From: Thermoplasmata archaeon
GTDB lineage: Archaea > Thermoplasmatota > Thermoplasmata > Halarchaeoplasmatales > Halarchaeoplasmataceae
Assembly: GCA_003551065.1 (NCBI GenBank)
Contig: PULU01000092.1
Span: 1-52,819, forward strand
Reading direction: 5' to 3'
DNA: 52,819 nt
Position 1 is the first letter of the stretch. Each line of letters starts with the position of its first letter. Below, one piece after another: positions 1,613 to 48,144 of this stretch. Under the pieces are notes generated by a model. That model was not told the DNA's origin, made no database searches, and saw only the letters and a program-made list of their open reading frames with translations. The translations under genes and the position numbers were made by a program.

Positions 1613-2667
1613 TGTCAGAGGAGAATAGAATTAGGCTGAAGGTGCTCACGATCGTATTGTTGCTGGTGGTGACGATGGTGGTCGTCGGTTATTATCAGAG
1701 AGAAGATGATGATAAAGAAGAATTGGAGATAGAAAAAGGTTCAGATGAATTGACGATCGAATATTTTCCTTCTGAGGGTGAGGTCGATGGAAGAAATTAT
1801 AACAAAAATAGTAATGCTACTACTCTCGTCGATCAAAATAATATTTTAGCTCTCGAAGTCGAAGTGTGGGATGTTAAAGCAGGTAGTCTATATCAGTATA
1901 TAGATTTAAAAATAAGAGGTGAAGGTAACTTTGAAGAAGATTTTGAGCCAGAAATACTCGAATTGAGAGCTCAGGGTAGAGATGAAGAAAATGCTTCGTA
2001 TAATTCTCATACTTTTTCTCAAGATAGAAATTGGCTAGAGACTGAGAATTGTTCAATTAAATATGATGAGGATTATACATCGCTTGGAAATTCTGGTGTA
2101 GAACCTGCAAAGTTAGGAGCTGATATAGAATCTAACAGATTTTTTGCTGAAAGTCGCTTTCAATGGTCGATACCTGATAGGAATTGGTACGAGTCTTATA
2201 CTCTCGAATTACAGGCGATTTTACATGGATTATCTGAAGAGGTAACAGCTAGTATAGATCTGTCGATAGATGTATACTCACAAGTTCAAGGTATGGAGGT
2301 CGAGACCGATAAAGAGCACTATTATACTAGTGATTACACTTCCGAAGAGGATGCTGAAGAAAACCAGTATTATGTTGAACCAAAACTCTATTACGAGTTC
2401 GAAAATCCGCAAATAGAAGAGGACCATCTCTACGACGTAAAGATATCTTTAAGATTAGATGATGGATGGGAGACTTTCTATGAAGGTGAAGACAAAATCG
2501 TGAATATCTCTTACGAAGCGGATTTTTCTTTGGAAGTCGACGAAGGTACAGAACAGCAGGAATATCAGGTAAGATTCACCATAATTTCGCAGGAGAGTGG
2601 ATGGGAATATGACTCTTCGGAGGATATCGAGATATCATTCTACGTGACAGAAGATGGGGGTGGATGA
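1612..2667 (+). CDS. Membrane-anchored surface protein, paralog 2, with extra ~130-aa C-terminal beta-rich domain
   Basis: TAATG coupling to paralog 1; same signal anchor; shared motif FQWSIPDRNW...TLELQAILHGLSEEVTASIDL, then an extension starting VETDKEHYY. Confidence 0.8.
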   Translation: MSEENRIRLKVLTIVLLLVVTMVVVGYYQREDDDKEELEIEKGSDELTIEYFPSEGEVDGRNYNKNSNATTLVDQNNILALEVEVWDVKAGSLYQYIDLKIRGEGNFEEDFEPEILELRAQGRDEENASYNSHTFSQDRNWLETENCSIKYDEDYTSLGNSGVEPAKLGADIESNRFFAESRFQWSIPDRNWYESYTLELQAILHGLSEEVTASIDLSIDVYSQVQGMEVETDKEHYYTSDYTSEEDAEENQYYVEPKLYYEFENPQIEEDHLYDVKISLRLDDGWETFYEGEDKIVNISYEADFSLEVDEGTEQQEYQVRFTIISQESGWEYDSSEDIEISFYVTEDGGG

Positions 2668-3699: not shown

Positions 3700-5616
3700 A
3701 TGGGAACGTTTTGTCAAAGATGTGGGACACTGCTTCCTCCAGATAAAAATGGATCGTACTGCCCAAGATGTAAGAGAGGAGGGATCAAGAAACAAAGAAA
3801 ACCGAAGATGATGAAGGATGAAGGCCCAGGATTATTTCCTTTCAAAGATGTTAGAGATGGACAAAAAGAATTCATGGACGATTCTGAACGAGCCTTCTCC
3901 CAGGGAAAAGTTTTGTTAGCACATGCACCCACGGGTATCGGTAAAACTGCAGCTGTACTCACCTCTGCCGTAAAATCAAAAACGGAGAACAAGAAGATTT
4001 TCTTTCTTACCAGTAAACAGTCTCAACATCGTATAGCGATAGATACAGTACAAAGTATGTCCTCATCTATCAACGCCATCGATATAATCGCTAAGCAGCA
4101 CATGTGTCCCAGGGAGGAATCAAAATTACCGTATCCAGTTTTTGAAAAGTTCTGTAGTGAGAAGGGGAAACAATACTGCAATCTATATAATCGAAAGATG
4201 AAAGATGTTTCAAACCAGTTGAAGGAGGACACGTTGCATGTACATGAGATAGTTGAGATGTGTAGTTCAAAAAACGTCTGTCCTCATAAAGCTGCTCTAG
4301 AAACCGGCAAATACGCAGATATAATCGTGTGTGATTACAATTATATCTTTTCGGACATCAGAGACCAGATATTGGAACAACTCGGTCTTGCCATAGATGA
4401 TTGTCTGGTCATAGTCGATGAAGCACACAACCTCCCAGATAGAGTGAGAGGTCACCTAGAGGAAACGATATCAACTCAGGTACTTCAGGAAGCACATGGA
4501 TTACTGAATATGTCTGATCCATCGCTAGCTAGCTTTATCAAAAGGCTGGTCATGGAGTTCGAAGAACTTGATATACAGGAACAACCTATAGAGAAAGAGT
4601 TCCTTGACGGCATTGTAGATGATGCCCTGAAAGGTGGTCTGATCCACGGCAAGGAGTTCGATACACTGCTGAAGGAATTGGAACAAGCAGCTAGTAGATT
4701 AGTAGAAGATGACCCAGCGGCTTCGGCCCCTTGGAGGGTCTTTTCGTTCTTCACTAAATGGAATAACGAGGGTCCTGAGATATTCAGAGGGTATCGACCA
4801 AATCCCCCGACATTCCAGGTGGGATTACTAGACCCTGCATATATGACAGGAGATATATTCTCACAGATCTCCGGAGCTGTTCTTATGAGCGGAACTCTGC
4901 ACCCTGGTGAGATGTACGCCGATCTTTTAGGTATCGACCGACCGATGATAAAAAGGTATGATTCTCCTTTCCCAGAAAAGAACAGAAAGATGATAAGTGT
5001 GAACAATCTCACAACGTCTTATAAAGAAAGAGGCCTACATATGTACCAGGCCTTTGCAAACAGTATCTCTGATGTTGCTAACAATGTCCAAGGGAACGTC
5101 GCTGTTTTCTTCCCCTCATACAATCTTATGGAGAAGGTCTCGAACAGACTCGAACTAGTACATCTCGATAAAGACCTCATACTGGAAGACAGGAGATATT
5201 CGAAGTGGGAAAAGGAAAGACTAGTAGATTCACTAAAACGCTCGGAAAACAATGTTCTGATGGGCGTCCAGGGCGGTAGCCTATCGGAAGGCGTTGACTA
5301 CGAGGATAATATACTTTCAGTCGTAATTATAGCTGGAATACCCTTCCCTCCTCCATCTATCGAATTGGATTCTTTGCAGGACTACTATACCGAAAAGTTC
5401 GGTGAACAAAAGGGTTTTGATTATGCAAGGGTGTATCCTGCTTTGAACCGTGTACAGCAGGCAGCTGGAAGGTGTATCAGGAGTAAATACGATAAGGGAT
5501 TGATCGTACTGATGGATAAACGTTTCAATTACGATATGTATAAAAATAAGATGCCCGATGATTTTGATTACGATATCGCCGATGACCTAAGATCAGAATG
5601 TGAAGAATTCTTTTAG
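3700..5616 (+). CDS. xpd: XPD/Rad3/DinG-family Fe-S DNA helicase with N-terminal zinc ribbon
   Basis: Walker A APTGIGKT, DEAH box, SGT, SEGVDY, QAAGRCIR; four Fe-S Cys (HMC, FC, YC, VCP); N-terminal CQRC...CPRC. Confidence 0.9.
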   Translation: MGTFCQRCGTLLPPDKNGSYCPRCKRGGIKKQRKPKMMKDEGPGLFPFKDVRDGQKEFMDDSERAFSQGKVLLAHAPTGIGKTAAVLTSAVKSKTENKKIFFLTSKQSQHRIAIDTVQSMSSSINAIDIIAKQHMCPREESKLPYPVFEKFCSEKGKQYCNLYNRKMKDVSNQLKEDTLHVHEIVEMCSSKNVCPHKAALETGKYADIIVCDYNYIFSDIRDQILEQLGLAIDDCLVIVDEAHNLPDRVRGHLEETISTQVLQEAHGLLNMSDPSLASFIKRLVMEFEELDIQEQPIEKEFLDGIVDDALKGGLIHGKEFDTLLKELEQAASRLVEDDPAASAPWRVFSFFTKWNNEGPEIFRGYRPNPPTFQVGLLDPAYMTGDIFSQISGAVLMSGTLHPGEMYADLLGIDRPMIKRYDSPFPEKNRKMISVNNLTTSYKERGLHMYQAFANSISDVANNVQGNVAVFFPSYNLMEKVSNRLELVHLDKDLILEDRRYSKWEKERLVDSLKRSENNVLMGVQGGSLSEGVDYEDNILSVVIIAGIPFPPPSIELDSLQDYYTEKFGEQKGFDYARVYPALNRVQQAAGRCIRSKYDKGLIVLMDKRFNYDMYKNKMPDDFDYDIADDLRSECEEFF

Positions 5617-6086: not shown

Positions 6087-9000
6087 TCATTCGATAGCTT
6101 CCACCCAGATAGTGATATCCTTGCCATTTATGGACCAATCCTTTTCTAGTCCTTCACCACTACCTTCATCTAGCGTCTCAGAGAGGGTCTCGTTCATTAT
6201 ATAGCTCTTCATCTCCTCAACAGCCTCGTGAAGATCATGATCTCCTTTGTATCTAGTATGTATCTTCTGGGTGTATCCTAGCTCCAGGTCTTTTCTCATG
6301 GTCTGTATCCTTCTGACGACGTCTCTAGCTAGACCTTCGATCTCCAAGTTCTTATCGATATCTACATCCATGAAGACCTTTACCTCTTTACCTTCACTAG
6401 CCGTGTATCCGCTTTTGATATCCTCTAGTATCTCAACATCTTCTTCGGTGATATCGAAGCCGTCCAATTCAGCTTCACCTTCATCTAAAAGATCTTTCTT
6501 CAGTGAATTTGCATCAGCAAACTCGATCAGTTCAGCGACTTTATCAGCATCACCTTTAAATTTTGGTCCTAAAGAGGAATAGTTCGGTTCTATCCTAGTT
6601 TCGGTAAGACCACTTTCATCACCGGAGAAAACGAGTTCCTTGACGTTCAACTCGTCCATCAAAATATCTTTGAATATCTCGCAAGCTTCTTCAAAGGAGT
6701 CGTTCTCAGAGACCACTACTGCCTGGTTTAATGGTTGCCTGAGCTTGATGTTCTCCTGCTGTCTCGCATTCCTACCCAATTCAGCGATCTTTATGACTGA
6801 ATCCATGTGCTGTTCTAAACTCTCTTTGATATACTCTTCATCGCTCTCAGGATAATCCAACATATGCACGGATCCTGGACCATCTTCAGTTTCTTTGAAT
6901 AAAGACTGATATATCCTTTCGGATAAGAACGGGGTAAAGGGTGCCATCACCTGGGTCAGTGTCTTCAAGGTTTCATAAAGCGTATTATATGCACTCTCTT
7001 TTTCCTTATCAGTCCCTTCCCAGAATCTCCTACGACTCCTTCTGAGGTACCAGTTACTCAGATCGTCTATGAATTTCTCTATAGCCCTGGTCGATCTATG
7101 GACTTCGAGCTCGTCTAATCCATCTCTTACTTCATTGATAAGAGTATTTTTCTTGGATATGAGCCATCTATCGATCTGGTCGTTGACCTCGTATTCACCA
7201 GGTTCAAAATCATCTATATTTGCATTGCTGGTGAAGAAGGATACCACATTCATCAAGGTATTCAAGGTCTTACTGATCTTCTCGGATACCAGCTCATCAC
7301 TGAATTTTGTGGATTTCCAAACCGGTGAACTCAGGAAATATACACGAGTAGCGTCCGCACCCAAATTCTCTAGTACTTCCATGGGTTCCACAGCATTACC
7401 TTTGCTCTTGCTCATCTTTTCCCCATCTTCATCCAGCACCAGACCTAGAGTCATACAGCTCTTGTAAGCCGGTTCGTCGAATAAAAGCGAACTTATAGCC
7501 AATAGACTGTAAAACCATCCTCTAGTTTGGTCTAAAGCTTCTGTGATGAAATCTATAGGGAAAGCTTCGTCGAACCCATCTTCGTTCTCAAAGGGATAAT
7601 GAAATTGTGCGAAGGGTGCGCTTCCGCTGTCATACCAACAGTCGATCACGTAATCTACTCTTTCCATGGTTCTGGAACATTCTGGACATTCTAGCTTCAC
7701 CCTATCCACCCATGGTTTATGGAATTCAAAATCCTCTTCTAGCGGTTCTTTAGCTAGATCTTCTAACTCCTCTCGACTGCCGACACAGTGTTCATGCCCT
7801 TCATCACATATCCATATAGGTAATGGGGTTCCCCAGAAACGGTTCCTACTCAGTGACCAATCCTTCAATTCGTCCAGGAAATTTCCGAACCTACCGTGTT
7901 TAAGATGTTCGGGTTTCCATGTCACCATATCATTATTATCTATGAGTTTTTGTTTCTCCTGAGAAGTTCTGATGAACCAGCTTTCAAGGGCATAGTAAAG
8001 TAAAGGAGATTCACATCTCCAGCAGAACGGGTAAGTATGGGTTACAGTCTTTCTTTTGATCAGATCTCCCCTTTCATCGAGGTTTTTCATTATCCCATTA
8101 TCTGCATCTTTAACGAACTGGCCAGCATGATCCGATACAATATTCTTGAATTTACCATCTTCATCGACAGGATTCACCAGTGAAACACCTTCTTCTTTAC
8201 ATAATTCAAAGTCGTCTTCACCGAATGCTGGAGCTATATGGACGATACCCGTTCCTTCTTCTAAACTAACAAAATCAGCATGGGTAACATAGTGACTCTT
8301 ACTATCAGAATCCACATAATCGAACATGGGTTTGTATTCCTTCCCTAAAAGGTCCTCACCTTTCATGGTTTCAAGGACTTCGGCATCTTCGAATATATCA
8401 TCTACAAGCTTTTCTGCAAGATAGTATCTTTCTTTATCATGTTCAACCAAGGCATAGTTCAGATCTTTTCCCACGACAAGAAGAAGATTCGAGATGAGTG
8501 TCCAGGGTGTGGTAGTCCAGGCCAAAAAGTAAGAATCTTCATCTTCCAACTTGAAACGGACATATATCGAGGGGTCTTCCGTTTGTTCATATCCTTGAGC
8601 GACTTCGTGACTTGATAAAGGCGTCCCACATCTAGGACAATATGGGACAACTTTGTAACCTCTCTCTAGAAGACCGTTCTTCCAGTGCTGTTTTAAACTC
8701 CACCAAACACTTTCGATATAATCATCTCTCATGGTCACGTAGGCGTTTTCATAATCGATCCAGAAGCCTATCCTTTCGCTCATATCCTCCCATTCTTTCT
8801 GATACTTGAACACACTCTCTTTGCAGAGTTCGTTGAACCGTTCTAACCCGAACTCCATTATCTCTTCCTTCGTATCTATACCTAACTGCTTTTCGACTTC
8901 GATCTCGACCGGCAGTCCATGGGTATCCCAACCTGCTATATTTGGGACGATCTGATATCCTTCCATGGTCTTGTATCTAAGATAAACATCTTTAGCGACT

Positions 9001-9200
9001 CTCGTCAAAACGTGACCCATGTGCGGCATACCGTTGGCTGTCGGCGGTCCCTCTGTGAAACTGAATTTTTTATCTCTTCCCCTATCTCTAGAGTTCTCTG
9101 CGATATCATGTGATCTCCAGAACTCGAGTATCTCCTCTTCCTTCTCCGGTATCGGCGCATTCTTGTCCAAGGGCTTGAACTTCCCGTTATTTTCACTCAT
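6087..9200 (-). CDS. ileS: Isoleucine--tRNA ligase
   Basis: EGPPTANG.PHMGH (HIGH), GWDTHGLP, WTTTPWT, DQTRGWF, KMSKS. Start set at ATG 9200 with SD GGAGG at 9212-9208; the ORF track uses in-frame ATG 9233. Confidence 0.97.
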   Translation of the reverse strand: MSENNGKFKPLDKNAPIPEKEEEILEFWRSHDIAENSRDRGRDKKFSFTEGPPTANGMPHMGHVLTRVAKDVYLRYKTMEGYQIVPNIAGWDTHGLPVEIEVEKQLGIDTKEEIMEFGLERFNELCKESVFKYQKEWEDMSERIGFWIDYENAYVTMRDDYIESVWWSLKQHWKNGLLERGYKVVPYCPRCGTPLSSHEVAQGYEQTEDPSIYVRFKLEDEDSYFLAWTTTPWTLISNLLLVVGKDLNYALVEHDKERYYLAEKLVDDIFEDAEVLETMKGEDLLGKEYKPMFDYVDSDSKSHYVTHADFVSLEEGTGIVHIAPAFGEDDFELCKEEGVSLVNPVDEDGKFKNIVSDHAGQFVKDADNGIMKNLDERGDLIKRKTVTHTYPFCWRCESPLLYYALESWFIRTSQEKQKLIDNNDMVTWKPEHLKHGRFGNFLDELKDWSLSRNRFWGTPLPIWICDEGHEHCVGSREELEDLAKEPLEEDFEFHKPWVDRVKLECPECSRTMERVDYVIDCWYDSGSAPFAQFHYPFENEDGFDEAFPIDFITEALDQTRGWFYSLLAISSLLFDEPAYKSCMTLGLVLDEDGEKMSKSKGNAVEPMEVLENLGADATRVYFLSSPVWKSTKFSDELVSEKISKTLNTLMNVVSFFTSNANIDDFEPGEYEVNDQIDRWLISKKNTLINEVRDGLDELEVHRSTRAIEKFIDDLSNWYLRRSRRRFWEGTDKEKESAYNTLYETLKTLTQVMAPFTPFLSERIYQSLFKETEDGPGSVHMLDYPESDEEYIKESLEQHMDSVIKIAELGRNARQQENIKLRQPLNQAVVVSENDSFEEACEIFKDILMDELNVKELVFSGDESGLTETRIEPNYSSLGPKFKGDADKVAELIEFADANSLKKDLLDEGEAELDGFDITEEDVEILEDIKSGYTASEGKEVKVFMDVDIDKNLEIEGLARDVVRRIQTMRKDLELGYTQKIHTRYKGDHDLHEAVEEMKSYIMNETLSETLDEGSGEGLEKDWSINGKDITIWVEAIE

Positions 9201-9330
9201 CTGGAATCCTCCAAAAAACAAAATTATAACCATAACTGGGCGGATGGTTTATCTAATAGCTAATTATGATCCTTTCTTGATTAGCTGCCCAGTTCATAGG
9301 AATATCAGATAAGTATTCGATATTTAAATA
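9201..9330 (-). promoter_or_regulatory. ileS promoter plus structured ~97-nt leader (candidate attenuator)
   Basis: TATA 9328-9321; perfect stems AACTGGGC/GCCCAGTT (8 bp), AGCTAAT/ATTAGCT (7 bp), AACCAT/ATGGTT (6 bp); U-tract TTTTGTTTTTT before the SD. Confidence 0.6.
9253..9297 (-). CDS. Candidate leader peptide MNWAANQERIIISY upstream of ileS
   Basis: ATG 9297 lies 24 nt below TATA box TTTAAATA (9328-9321), i.e. at the expected start site; ATC-ATA-ATT at 9270-9262; TAG at 9255-9253. Confidence 0.5.
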   Translation of the reverse strand: MNWAANQERIIISY

Positions 9331-9343
9331 TTACCTATCGGGG

Positions 9344-10138
9344 TTAGTCTTCTTGGATCGACTCTGGTGCATCTGCGAAAGCGATGAGAGAATCTATCTC
9401 CATGAAATGCAGGTCACCAAATATCACAATGCACTGAAGCCCCTCTCCGAAATCGTGGTTTAAGATATCGGTTGGGTAGCCGGCTTTCAATTCTGGATCG
9501 GACGAACCGGCCCTTGCTATCCCAGCTGCGACCGTTTCTTCGTTGATCACTCCCTCTGATAAGGTCTCTTCGAGATGTAGCAGCGCTTCCATGCCTTCAT
9601 TTACCGTCATGAACTCCTCATTCTTTCCGTTTATATCGAGCAGTACCAGAGAGTGTAACCCCAGCTCCTGATTGTTTCTGATCCCCTGGTAAGGACTCTT
9701 TGGATAATTCTCCATTACTTTGAAAAAGGGCAGGGTCACTGTCTTTCCAAATTTGTAATGTTGAACCCCCAATATCGAAGGAGCAGCGGAGAATATCGAT
9801 GATGAATGTATCACCCTAGTCTCGATCCCTTCTTCTACGGCCCTCAACCTTAGATCGACATGTGTAGTAGCTGCCATGGGATCACCTGCTGTCAAAAACA
9901 CAACTTTTTTGTCCCTAGCTTCTTTGATAGGTGACGCCTGCTGTTCAACACCTTCCCTGTCTAATATCTGAATATCGACTCCCAACTCCTTTTCTATCTT
10001 AGTAAGATCTGTTCCTGCTAGATGACTAGTATAGAATTCAGAATACACTACGTCGGCTCTCTGAACGATCTTTTTACCTTTCAAGCTGATATCTTTTTCG
10101 TCGTACAATCCCAAACCGATGAATATTAATTCTCCCAT
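9344..10138 (-). CDS. dph5: Diphthine synthase
   Basis: LIFIGLGL, EFYTS, GDPMAATTH.DL, YKFGKTVT, GLHSLVLLDI, LHFME. Confidence 0.95.
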   Translation of the reverse strand: MGELIFIGLGLYDEKDISLKGKKIVQRADVVYSEFYTSHLAGTDLTKIEKELGVDIQILDREGVEQQASPIKEARDKKVVFLTAGDPMAATTHVDLRLRAVEEGIETRVIHSSSIFSAAPSILGVQHYKFGKTVTLPFFKVMENYPKSPYQGIRNNQELGLHSLVLLDINGKNEEFMTVNEGMEALLHLEETLSEGVINEETVAAGIARAGSSDPELKAGYPTDILNHDFGEGLQCIVIFGDLHFMEIDSLIAFADAPESIQED

Positions 10139-15736: not shown

Positions 15737-17650
15737 ATGAGCGTAGAAGATATTTTGAATGAGGCAAATAAAGCCATCAGGGATGTTCTGCCTAGACCAG
15801 TTAGAGTCTCAAACATTGAATTTGAAGGATCAACCATCGTAATATATACAAAAGATCTTAAAGAATTTACAAAAGAATCTGGGATCGTTAAAAAACTAGC
15901 TGAAAGGGTTAAAAGAAGGATATCCATAAGACCTGACCCTTCATTACTTGACAACCCTGAAGAAGCAGAAGGAAAGATCAAAGAGATAATACCAGAAGAG
16001 GCTAAAATCACAGATATGTTCTTTAAAGAAGATATGGGTGAGGTAACTATTGAAGCTGAGGCTCCTGGTATCGCTATCGGTAAGAAGGGTAAGATATTGA
16101 ATGAAATAAAAAGGAAAACTGGATGGGCTCCAGACGTTGTAAGAGCTCCCCCTATACCTTCTAAGACTGTCAAGGATATCAGAAGTTATCTAAGAGCTGT
16201 AAGGAGTGAAAGGAGAAAGTTCTTGAACACATTGGGCAGAAAGATCAACAGGGATACTAGACCTGGAGAGAAATTTGCAAGGTTAACGGCCTTGGGTGGT
16301 TATAGAGAGGTAGGCAGATCAGCACATCTACTTCATACCAGAGATAGTAAAGTATTGATCGATTGTGGAGCCGATGTGTCTTCTGATGGTGATGGTAGTC
16401 CTTATCTGAACGCTCCTGAGTTAATGCCTCTTGATAATATCGATGGTATAATCTTAACACATGCTCATCTGGATCACAGTGGATTAATCCCGGCTCTTTA
16501 TAAATATGGGTTCGAAGGGCCGGTTTATTGTACTCCACCGACTAGAGATCTAGCTGCACTTTTACAACTTGATTATATAAAAGTAGCTGTCGGTGAAGCT
16601 AGAGATCCTCCGTATGAATCATCGCATGTAAGAGAGGCTGTAAAACATACAATACCTCTTGAATACGGAGAGACCACGGATATAGCACCGGATATCAGAC
16701 TTACACTTCATAATGCTGGACACATACTTGGGTCAGCAGTTGCACATCTTCACATCGGGGATGGTGATTACAACGTAGCACTCACTGGTGATATAAAATA
16801 CGATAATACATGGTTATTCAACCAGGCGGTTAATAAGTTCCCCCGAGTCGAAACTGTGGTAATGGAATCCACATATGGTGGTTACCATGATCTACAGCCA
16901 AGCAGAAGAGATGCCGTCGCTCAATTGAAGGATATATTAGAACAGCACCTCAACAGTAAAACTGGAAAAGTGCTGATACCAGTATTCGCTGTAGGCAGGT
17001 CTCAAGAAGTCATGTTAGTTATAGAGGAGGCCATGAGAAAAGCTGAAGTACCTGAAGCACCGGTTTATCTAGATGGTATGATATGGGAAGCAACAGCAAT
17101 CCATACCGCATACCCCGAATTCTTAAACAATAAACTAAAAAAGAAGATATTCCACCATGATGAAAATCCATTCTTATCTGAGATATTTAATCAGGTGGAC
17201 AGCAGGGATATGAGAGAAGAGATATGTGATAGTTCAGAACCTGCTGTGGTCCTGGCAACTGCCGGTATGATGAACGGTGGACCAGTGCTCGAATATTTCA
17301 AAGCCTGGGGGGATGATCCTGAGAATGCTATCATATTCGTCGGTTACCAGGCTGATGGTACCATCGGAGATAGGATTCAAAAAGAATACGATCATATAAC
17401 TCTAAAAGAGAATGGAAATAACATCGACATAAAAGTTAAACTGCAGGTATATACATGTGAAGGTTTCTCAGGTCACAGTGATAGGATACAGCTGCTCCAT
17501 TATGTGAGCAGTATGAAGCCTAATCCTGAAAGGGTCATAGTCAGCCATGGTGAAGAAGGTAAGTGTACTAACCTTGCAAGCACTATATACAAAAAATATG
17601 GTATGGAGACAAGGACTCCCAAGAACCTAGAAACTGTAAGACTGTATTGA
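15737..17650 (+). CDS. fttA: Beta-CASP ribonuclease aCPSF1 / transcription termination factor FttA
   Basis: N-terminal KH domains, LGGYREVGRS, THAHLDHSG, AGHILGS, MESTYGG, FSGHSD, HGE; conserved position after psmB. Confidence 0.96.
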   Translation: MSVEDILNEANKAIRDVLPRPVRVSNIEFEGSTIVIYTKDLKEFTKESGIVKKLAERVKRRISIRPDPSLLDNPEEAEGKIKEIIPEEAKITDMFFKEDMGEVTIEAEAPGIAIGKKGKILNEIKRKTGWAPDVVRAPPIPSKTVKDIRSYLRAVRSERRKFLNTLGRKINRDTRPGEKFARLTALGGYREVGRSAHLLHTRDSKVLIDCGADVSSDGDGSPYLNAPELMPLDNIDGIILTHAHLDHSGLIPALYKYGFEGPVYCTPPTRDLAALLQLDYIKVAVGEARDPPYESSHVREAVKHTIPLEYGETTDIAPDIRLTLHNAGHILGSAVAHLHIGDGDYNVALTGDIKYDNTWLFNQAVNKFPRVETVVMESTYGGYHDLQPSRRDAVAQLKDILEQHLNSKTGKVLIPVFAVGRSQEVMLVIEEAMRKAEVPEAPVYLDGMIWEATAIHTAYPEFLNNKLKKKIFHHDENPFLSEIFNQVDSRDMREEICDSSEPAVVLATAGMMNGGPVLEYFKAWGDDPENAIIFVGYQADGTIGDRIQKEYDHITLKENGNNIDIKVKLQVYTCEGFSGHSDRIQLLHYVSSMKPNPERVIVSHGEEGKCTNLASTIYKKYGMETRTPKNLETVRLY

Positions 17651-48044: not shown

Positions 48045-48144
48045 TAGCGGGGAGTGGATTTGAACCACTGGTCTCCGGGTTCCTCAGGTGCATTTAGCTG
48101 CACCATATGAGCCCGACGGGTTTTCCTAGCTACCCTACCCCGCT
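48045..48144 (-). tRNA. Initiator tRNA-Met(CAU) with 25-nt intron (48081-48105) at 37/38
   Basis: Cloverleaf AGCGGGG/CCCCGCT (A1-U72), D stem GGGT/ACCC, three G-C pairs in anticodon stem, CAT anticodon, TTCAAAT loop; BHB CTCA/TGAG with TAT and GAA bulges; CCA not encoded. Confidence 0.95.

Follow-up and report, generated by a model that had tools for sequence, protein, structure and literature searches.

How might an archaeon match the output of an aminoacyl-tRNA synthetase gene to the charging of the tRNAs that its product serves? The question is raised by the leader of ileS, the gene for isoleucyl-tRNA synthetase (IleRS), in a 52,819-nucleotide (nt) stretch from a Thermoplasmata archaeon (contig PULU01000092.1, assembly GCA_003551065.1), which is referred to here as the window. 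ileS lies at 6087–9200 on the minus strand and encodes 1037 amino acids (TIGR00392, 938 bits; also near the MupA/MupB profiles), and the element in question occupies 9328–9198 of the same strand, on which all leader coordinates below are given. Leader-peptide attenuation is a textbook form of bacterial control, and archaeal transcription and translation are likewise coupled. Full-text literature searches found no archaeal leader-peptide attenuator, the nearest published systems being bacterial. We propose that the element is a cis-acting sensor of Ile-tRNA(Ile) charging, which would control ileS through a single helix, P1, and termination at a U-tract. We put the probability of this reading, of which the transcription start, the translation of the short reading frame, the sign of the response and an output through termination are inferred parts, at roughly 0.45; that the leader is an Ile-sensing element of some kind is well supported. 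A preliminary description of the locus had placed three hairpins, a run of Ile codons, a U-tract and a pairing that could hide the Shine-Dalgarno (SD) sequence in this leader, and every motif string that it named was found in place on the minus strand.

The leader opens with a TATA box (TTTAAATA, 9328–9321) that stands 23 nt before the AUG beginning an upstream open reading frame (uORF) and from which the transcription start is predicted. The uORF, MNWAANQERIIISY, has 14 codons and a stop (9297–9253; ATG at 9297, stop at 9255–9253), and its putative regulatory codons, AUC AUA AUU for Ile-Ile-Ile (9270–9262), lie two sense codons ahead of the stop. An Ile-codon reading frame of this kind, as the preliminary description had it, recurs in relatives. 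We aligned 63 leaders, 62 of them distinct, from six Thermoplasmata families (labelled f1, the family of the window, f4, f9, f12, f17 and f20), and 62 of the 63 hold an in-frame uORF with an Ile run; the leader that has none, L166, is omitted from the Ile-run and masked-fold counts. A III-type run of at least three codons, three to five at its longest, is found in 56 of the 62 distinct leaders, and in 57 of 61 one or two sense codons separate the run from the stop. The uORFs are 9–17 codons long and differ by whole codons, and the three Ile codons are used interchangeably (ATC 104, ATA 76, ATT 75). Both AUA and AUC/AUU, which are read by two different Ile tRNA species, are present in 59 of 62 leaders. 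All three stop codons are used (TGA 42, TAA 11, TAG 9), and outside the stretches that the P1 arm and the Ile run encode the peptide is not conserved. Since Ile codons swap freely, insertions and deletions come in whole codons and every stop occurs, the pattern, as judged from these alignments, resembles that of selection on the translation of Ile codons and not on an RNA motif. A TATA-like box matching at 7–8 of 8 positions precedes the uORF in 53 of 61 leaders, and the 3′ end of the box is 20–26 nt before the AUG in 59 of 61. This spacing, together with the lack of an SD ahead of the uORF AUG, makes it probable that the uORF is leaderless, starting at or 1–2 nt after the 5′ end of the transcript. 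As a separate observation, the uORF of L166 (genome G121, f4) reads MNSATQLMIMIS; Met codons break the Ile run, P1 is retained, and the locus may represent a decaying or retuned sensor.

P1 joins a 5′ arm within uORF codons 2–4 (AACTGGGC, RNA AACUGGGC, 9294–9287) to a 3′ arm whose start is 15 nt past the first stop-codon base (GCCCAGTT, RNA GCCCAGUU, 9241–9234). The minimum-free-energy (MFE) fold of 9300–9198 reaches −24.5 kcal/mol (z = −1.81; 8 of 200 shuffles fold equally well), which by itself is modest support for structure, not strong. It is dominated by an extended P1, CUAUGA.CUGGGC with GCCCAGUUAUGG, which runs to 9299 on one side and 9230 on the other and holds the uORF start codon within the helix and a second stem, P2, nested inside. 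Comparison between leaders is far more telling. From a plain MAFFT alignment of 26 leaders, RNAalifold recovers P1 only, with 6 pairs, 4 of which show compensatory changes. In the 62 distinct model-aligned leaders, 92.0% of 477 P1 cells pair and 6 of the 8 pairs carry changes on both sides (50 cells), figures that overstate independence, the alignment being structure-fitted and the sequences related. Pair 2, for example, is G-C in 28 leaders and A-U in 27, and pair 5 is G-C in 36 and C-G in 15. None of 500 shuffles matches either the paired share or the covariation score, and pairing falls to 16–50% when the partner is shifted by 1–3 columns. The result from MAFFT alone and the variants of the arms across families (AACUGGGC/GCCCAGUU, AGCUGGGC/GCCCAGCU, AACUCGGCA/UGCCGAGUU, AACUCAGCA/UGCUGAGUU and AUGAGCU/AGCUCAU) are, as sequence comparisons go, sturdier evidence than the model-fitted figures. 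Furthermore, the two arms of the same leader pair at −17.3 kcal/mol compared with −13.2 kcal/mol for arms of mixed leaders (0 of 2000 permutations as low), and the 3′ arm pairs with the 5′ arm at a mean probability of 0.84, exceeding 0.3 in 59 of 62 leaders. On this comparative footing P1 is real and conserved, and the covariation among homologs that the preliminary description had proposed looking for is there. The start codon itself is part of the helix in f9, f17 and f20, and in the ensemble the AUG has a greater than 0.5 probability of pairing with the region of the P1 3′ strand in 34 of 62 leaders, among them every leader of these three families.

The loop of P1 is the uORF itself. It measures 30–55 nt, with 30–36 nt in f9 and f17, close to the span of a single ribosome, and 38–55 nt in f1. 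Counted from the first stop-codon base, the 3′ arm begins 11–20 nt downstream (mostly 14–15 in f1 and 18 in f4). A ribosome has a footprint of about 28–30 nt, sizes that come from bacteria and eukaryotes. On steric grounds we infer that a ribosome anywhere on the uORF keeps P1 open, a conclusion that is firm for loops of 30–36 nt. By analogy with those bacterial and eukaryotic footprints, a ribosome on the stop codon would cover the spacer between stop codon and P1 (an 11-nt pyrimidine-rich segment, AUAAACCAUCC, 9252–9242, containing the anti-SD-like CAUCC at 9246–9242), with both P1 arms just outside its footprint.

A short open reading frame (ORF) with consecutive Ile codons precedes ileS orthologs at 23 of the 26 loci that retain upstream DNA; L021, L025, L028 and L030, in which the 5′ end of ileS is cut at a contig end, were left out of the leader set. 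A covariance model built from 26 leaders with P1 as its sole structure gives exactly one match per genome, always at ileS, in 39 of the 44 genomes of the order, which consists of the single family f1. All 23 genomes of the order that are at least 90% complete have the match, and in three of the five without it ileS is cut at a contig end; the host assembly of the window is 64% complete. Among 151 genomes sampled evenly across the class, matches occur in 17 of 17 f1, 12 of 15 f4, 8 of 8 f9, 4 of 5 f17, 3 of 4 f20 and 1 of 1 f12 genomes. Of twenty weaker class-level matches that were fetched, 13 are immediately followed by an IleRS gene and contain an Ile uORF; the other seven adjoin no IleRS and were discarded as spurious. 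A sample of 151 genomes from the phylum beyond this class yielded three weak matches, none of them beside an IleRS-like frame or with an Ile uORF. The leader-bearing records, all metagenome-assembled genomes, include Candidatus Saliniplasma and Thermoplasmata archaeon. Rfam at its gathering threshold reports nothing at the leader, its only match in the window being a tRNA at 48045–48144, and a permissive scan of 9150–9360 returned three noise matches and no T-box. Within this genome, the ileS leader ranks third in 5′-arm pairing (−17.1 kcal/mol) among 283 TATA-plus-ATG short ORFs, and the 25 best-pairing of these include no amino-acid-run leader besides that of ileS. A looser scan of the genome for short ORFs with repeated residues produced 326 noisy matches. 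The top-ranked TATA-plus-ATG short ORF (contig C161, about 1924–1971, minus strand) was rejected as a false positive, being a tRNA-like gene with a GGTTCGAACCC-type arm.

The synthetase that follows the leader suggests which way the response would run. In a quick maximum-likelihood IQ-TREE phylogeny, Thermoplasmata IleRS fall into two clades. Clade B (Shimodaira–Hasegawa-like approximate likelihood-ratio test, SH-aLRT, 100) contains all 24 leader-bearing genes and three genes from loci without a leader (f10, f14 and f11), and the eight remaining leader-less IleRS sequences fall outside it. Clade B resembles type-2, MupA/MupB-like IleRS. Genomes of f4, f9 and f20 hold both IleRS types, with the leader only before the clade-B copy, and the f1 genomes and one f17 genome that were checked hold clade B only. 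Among relatives of the clade-B enzyme elsewhere (80 loci kept, all bacterial but two archaeal records), one of the 80 has an upstream III short ORF, and an Asgard locus, L206 (58% identity over the N-terminal part of IleRS), has no Ile uORF. A study of Bacillus ileS2 describes that gene as inducible when charging falls (bioRxiv 10.1101/2022.02.09.479832). Because f1 has no IleRS other than clade B, because f4, f9 and f20 have the clade-B enzyme as a back-up, and by analogy with Bacillus ileS2, stalling at the Ile codons would have to raise ileS output; a back-up synthetase would make sense only if induced on falling Ile-tRNA charging. The closed P1 would therefore be the OFF state, for which the obvious route in f1 is termination or pausing at the U-tracts. 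Two clade-B loci, L022 (f10) and L023 (f14), have an ileS that no uORF precedes; in L023 the distance from a TATA-like box to the ileS ATG is about 24 nt, and ileS itself looks leaderless. The uORF AUG of the other families sits where the own start of ileS lies in these two loci.

The preliminary description also pointed to a U-tract of the archaeal terminator type abutting the SD, and this is both present and conserved within f1. The tract, TTTTGTTTTTT (9223–9213), reads U4-G-U6 and so provides the two or more runs of at least four U (U4 tracts) close together that mark archaeal U-tract terminators; it is followed directly by the SD of ileS, GGAGG (9212–9208), a purine motif that is nearly invariant in the leader alignment. 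At least one U4 tract lies between P1 and the SD in 36 of 36 distinct f1 leaders and at least two in 28 of 36. The stretch from P1 to the SD has a median T fraction of 0.65, and its U4+ tracts begin 4–10 nt after P1. Such an arrangement is rare in this genome: of 1218 crude gene starts, 5 have a T run of at least five no more than 2 nt away from an SD. The position 14 nt past the P1 3′ arm lands within the U-rich stretch in 34 of 36 f1 leaders; if RNA polymerase conceals some 14 nt of nascent RNA, P1 would therefore first close with the active site in that stretch. Outside f1, no leader has two or more U4 tracts before the SD (f4 0/12, f9 0/6), and at least one is found in 6 of 12 f4, 1 of 6 f9, 4 of 4 f17 and 3 of 3 f20 leaders. 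According to one study (PMC8716108), aCPSF1 binds U4 tracts, and in Methanococcus maripaludis a pair of them makes up the minimal site for efficient aCPSF1 binding and yields the highest termination.

Combining these features, we can propose how the element may work. Transcription would start at or just before the AUG of the 14-codon leaderless uORF, and a first ribosome would load on this AUG at the 5′ end as synthesis of the RNA continues. In P1, roughly the first 12 nt of the transcript pair with a segment that would lie just past what a ribosome at the stop codon covers; the helix would be unable to close with a ribosome on the uORF and, once closed, would hide the uORF start. When Ile-tRNA is plentiful, the ribosome would finish and leave, allowing P1 to close with polymerase on the two U4+ tracts 4–22 nt downstream, and most transcripts would end there, either intrinsically or through aCPSF1/FttA, with the GC-rich helix assisting. 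When Ile-tRNA is scarce, on the other hand, the ribosome would wait on AUC-AUA-AUU, which samples the codons of both Ile tRNA species, P1 would stay open, polymerase would read through, and an ileS mRNA with a free SD would be made.

Several points weigh against this proposal. First of all, hairpin-plus-T sites are not enriched in the window (12 compared with 13.2 ± 4.0 expected), and archaeal RNA polymerase is not known to need a hairpin for termination at U-tracts. Second, for P1 to close in time, the ribosome would have to depart while polymerase is still on the U-tracts, which presumes a pause. Third, because double U4 tracts are confined to f1, termination cannot, on the leader sequences, be the common output of all families. 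Families without U-tracts must, by analogy with the expression platforms of riboswitches, use another output. The small hairpin that directly follows P1 (CCAGA...UCUGG or CUAG...CUGG) and overlaps the first G's of the SD in L167, L169, L172 and L173 (f17) and in L171, L174 and L177 (f9) is, to judge by its sequence, a different expression platform behind the same sensor; a run of T5–7 also follows the SD in 3 of 4 f17 leaders. Finally, modelled SD accessibility points in the opposite direction to that expected of a translational output. In a nearest-neighbour model without pseudoknots, accessibility is 0.47 for the free leader, 0.39 with P1 blocked and 0.43 with a ribosome at the stop codon, and blocking P1 lowers it in 40 and raises it in 8 of 61 leaders, with the sign of the shift depending on family (up in f17; mostly down in f1, f4 and f20). 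Folding under ribosome masks, which the preliminary description had suggested, could thus be carried out but gave shifts too small and too variable in sign between families to decide the output step.

The strongest competitor keeps the sensor and replaces the output. Here the spacer (CAUCC in the window, CCUCC in relatives) would pair in the closed state with the SD, forming an H-type pseudoknot whose second stem stacks on P1; a ribosome translating the uORF would melt P1 and, at the stop codon, cover the spacer and so free the SD. The idea that ATCCGCC could hide the SD was already in the preliminary description, and the complementarity is as claimed, pairing 6 of 7 with GGAGGAT; in the genus of the window the pairing is weak. 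There it comprises only AUCC with GGAU (−3.4 to −5.3 kcal/mol, z about 0), with −4.3 kcal/mol and z = 0.0 relative to shuffled spacers in the window itself. A strong duplex is confined to one f1 genus group (L133–135, L151 and L155, −8.3 to −10.7 kcal/mol) and f20 (−14.0 kcal/mol). Across all leaders, the spacer outdoes a control segment in pairing with the SD region in 47 of 62; set against shuffled spacers it averages z = −0.35, with just 7 of 62 leaders under −1.64. Some relationship between the two segments is nevertheless suggested by the sequences. The spacer is anti-SD-like in most families; spacers pair with their own SD region at −6.29 kcal/mol compared with −5.74 kcal/mol for those of other leaders (12 of 5000 permutations as low); and in some lineages the spacer and the SD flanks change together, as in ACCUCC/GGAGGU, UUCCUCC/GGAGGAA and UCACC/GGUGA (L009). 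Furthermore, the length of the spacer equals the cover of a terminating ribosome, the SD lies 16–21 nt (family medians) from the P1 3′ arm in every family, and an output of this type could be common to families without U-tracts. On the other hand, the register varies between groups, so that no single covarying helix can be drawn, and a translational output leaves no role for the double U4 tract conserved in f1. Taken together, we regard SD pairing as an unlikely output for this leader, albeit one that deserves to be kept in view.

A reversed logic fares worse. P1 would here act as an anti-terminator that shields the single-stranded C/U-rich RNA trailing the polymerase from aCPSF1/FttA; unhindered uORF translation would allow P1 to form and polymerase to read through, and stalling would lead to termination at the U-tracts, so that ileS would track translation capacity in a polarity-like manner. 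Such a scheme draws on the uptake of RNA by FttA straight from the exit channel, with contacts proposed to exclude a coupled ribosome (PMC11616081), and on the binding of aCPSF1 to U4 tracts (PMC8716108); the thermodynamic model also has the SD slightly more open with P1 formed. It would, however, shut off the sole IleRS of f1 as Ile-tRNA charging falls, a self-reinforcing loss, would leave the Ile-specific codon run unexplained and would render the leader-controlled second IleRS of f4, f9 and f20 pointless, which makes it improbable. A slightly poorer prospect still is that the leader senses no amino acid at all, with P1 being a 5′-end helix that stabilizes the mRNA or tunes uORF translation and the peptide or its Ile run having some other role. 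The involvement of the 5′ terminus in P1 and the frequent pairing of the start codon described above would fit. Against this, the peptide is unconserved apart from the P1-arm residues and the Ile run, codon identity within that run is maintained across six families and only before the cognate synthetase, the model matches once per genome, and no second amino-acid-run leader appears among the 25 best-pairing short ORFs of this genome; we consider it very improbable.

The preliminary description itself had envisaged mutually exclusive hairpins, P1 and P3, with P2 nested in P1, and a choice between them set by whether a ribosome covers the 5′ arm of P3. P2 (AGCUAAU, 9286–9280, with AUUAGCU, 9264–9258) exists as described, and the Ile codons at 9270–9262 do fall in its loop and 3′ arm, but the stem is lineage-specific: it is the best interior fold in this genome (L132) only, with an interior z of −1.60. 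Interiors are weakly structured over the 62 leaders (mean z −0.69; 8 of 62 below −1.64), and those of leaders from the same genus fold otherwise, with UAUGA/UCAUA plus GAGU/ACUC. By eye, a small hairpin around the uORF stop codon recurs among leaders. P3 (AACCAU, 9249–9244, with AUGGUU, 9233–9228) is likewise present and not conserved. P3-like stems of at least 5 base pairs flanking the P1 3′ arm occur in 9 of 62 leaders, the nearest relative, L130, not among them, compared with 13.8% of shuffled flanks, and on this comparison P3 is most likely a chance match. Since such stems occur at chance frequency, the argument that a ribosome at the uORF stop would cover the P3 5′ arm falls with P3. Of the ribosome-dependent switching once claimed, it is the dependence of helix formation on the ribosome, in the form of P1, that stands, and the exclusivity of P1 and P3 that does not. 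Folding of the 62 leaders with the 5′ 18 nt masked revealed no conserved alternative partner of the P1 3′ arm, which then pairs with the SD region in 26, the interior in 15 and the coding region in 11 of 62. In terms of conserved sequence, the leader is a single closing helix with the uORF as its loop and not a three-hairpin switch. Although this sequence accommodates all three stems, with the 3′ arm of P1 as the loop of P3, a three-hairpin model is scarcely credible given that P3 is at chance, P2 is unconserved and RNAalifold retains P1 alone.

How does the ileS leader compare with known systems? In E. coli pheM-pheST and in trpL, ilvL and thrL, a leader ORF carries cognate codons, the position of the ribosome picks the RNA structure, and a GC-rich helix is followed by a U-run. 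The ileS leader likewise has a short cognate-codon ORF before its gene, in pheST too that of a tRNA synthetase, and its Ile run stands before ileS in every case, its translation being predicted. It differs from this class, which has overlapping terminator and antiterminator hairpins, in that P1 alone is conserved, in that the 5′ arm is the 5′ end of a probably leaderless uORF and the loop is the whole uORF, and in its archaeal host with termination by U-tracts and aCPSF1. Attenuators of the pheST type are mentioned in PMC1262725. A second parallel is offered by the leaderless polycysteine short ORFs of mycobacteria (the Ms5788A class), in which Cys codons pair with the SD region (bioRxiv 10.1101/834739). 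The resemblance lies in a sensory short ORF with a cognate run that opens the transcript (here probably), in a stalled ribosome that blocks an inhibitory duplex and in the lack of a competing-hairpin terminator; unlike in that class, the duplex of the ileS leader joins the 5′ end to a segment after the stop codon, with U-tracts following. Pairing of the regulatory codons with the SD in the mycobacterial manner is ruled out here, the Ile run pairing with the SD region at a mean of −3.0 kcal/mol (z +0.53, 0 of 61 leaders below −1.64) and an ensemble probability of 0.001.

T-box control of ileS in Actinobacteria and of ileS2 in Bacilli, described in PMC1262725 and 10.1101/2022.02.09.479832, respectively, concerns the same gene and the same signal, charging of tRNA(Ile), and extends to an inducible type-2, MupA-like second IleRS. 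A T-box binds uncharged tRNA directly, whereas the signal of the ileS leader, which has no T-box match, would be read by a ribosome at Ile codons. Lastly, the terminators of archaeal aCPSF1 (FttA), as described in PMC8716108 and PMC11616081, share with the leader two U4+ tracts within about 20 nt, and aCPSF1 is encoded in the genome. Those terminators end genes, whereas the ileS tract sits in a 5′ leader, abuts the SD and follows a covarying helix, and its use would be conditional.

It is a serious, if still tentative, possibility that archaea have a true ribosome-mediated attenuation, built from a leaderless uORF, a single closing helix gated by ribosome occupancy, and U-tract termination with aCPSF1/FttA, which would be ancestral to one IleRS clade in at least six families and would serve to induce a type-2 back-up enzyme. 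The leader makes it testable whether archaeal ribosomes gate RNA folding behind RNA polymerase and whether termination by U-tracts and FttA can be conditional, and it suggests how archaea with two IleRS switch on the second synthetase. The approximately 62 natural leader variants, with their clear covariation, form a compact set for such studies.

Several observations concern the surroundings of the leader. Upstream, dph5, the gene for diphthine synthase (TIGR00522, 301 bits), ends at 9344 on the minus strand, before the ileS leader. An in-frame ATG at 9233 lengthens the ileS frame by 11 codons (MVIILFFGGFQ) across the 3′ flank of P1 and the U-tract, and a gene caller could therefore mis-start ileS and hide the leader; the ORF listing does start ileS at 9233, and relatives lack that ATG, starting at an SD-preceded MSENN. 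The gene for aCPSF1/FttA, which the preliminary description had noted in the window, is indeed there at 15758–17644 on the plus strand (TIGR03675, 931 bits against a cut-off of 580). To our knowledge this protein is universal in archaea, and its proximity to the leader is therefore uninformative. A 638-aa ORF at 3700–5616 is a Rad3/XPD-type helicase, not aCPSF1. The Rfam tRNA match at 48045–48144 (minus strand) spans 100 nt for a 71-position model, suggesting an intron-containing tRNA gene. Elsewhere in this genome, the same short ORFs occur at matching coordinates on the contig pairs C115/C35 and C67/C82, which suggests duplicated contigs. The sequencing runs found for the stretch 8300–9800 are of DNA and are labelled salt-lake or soda-lake metagenome.

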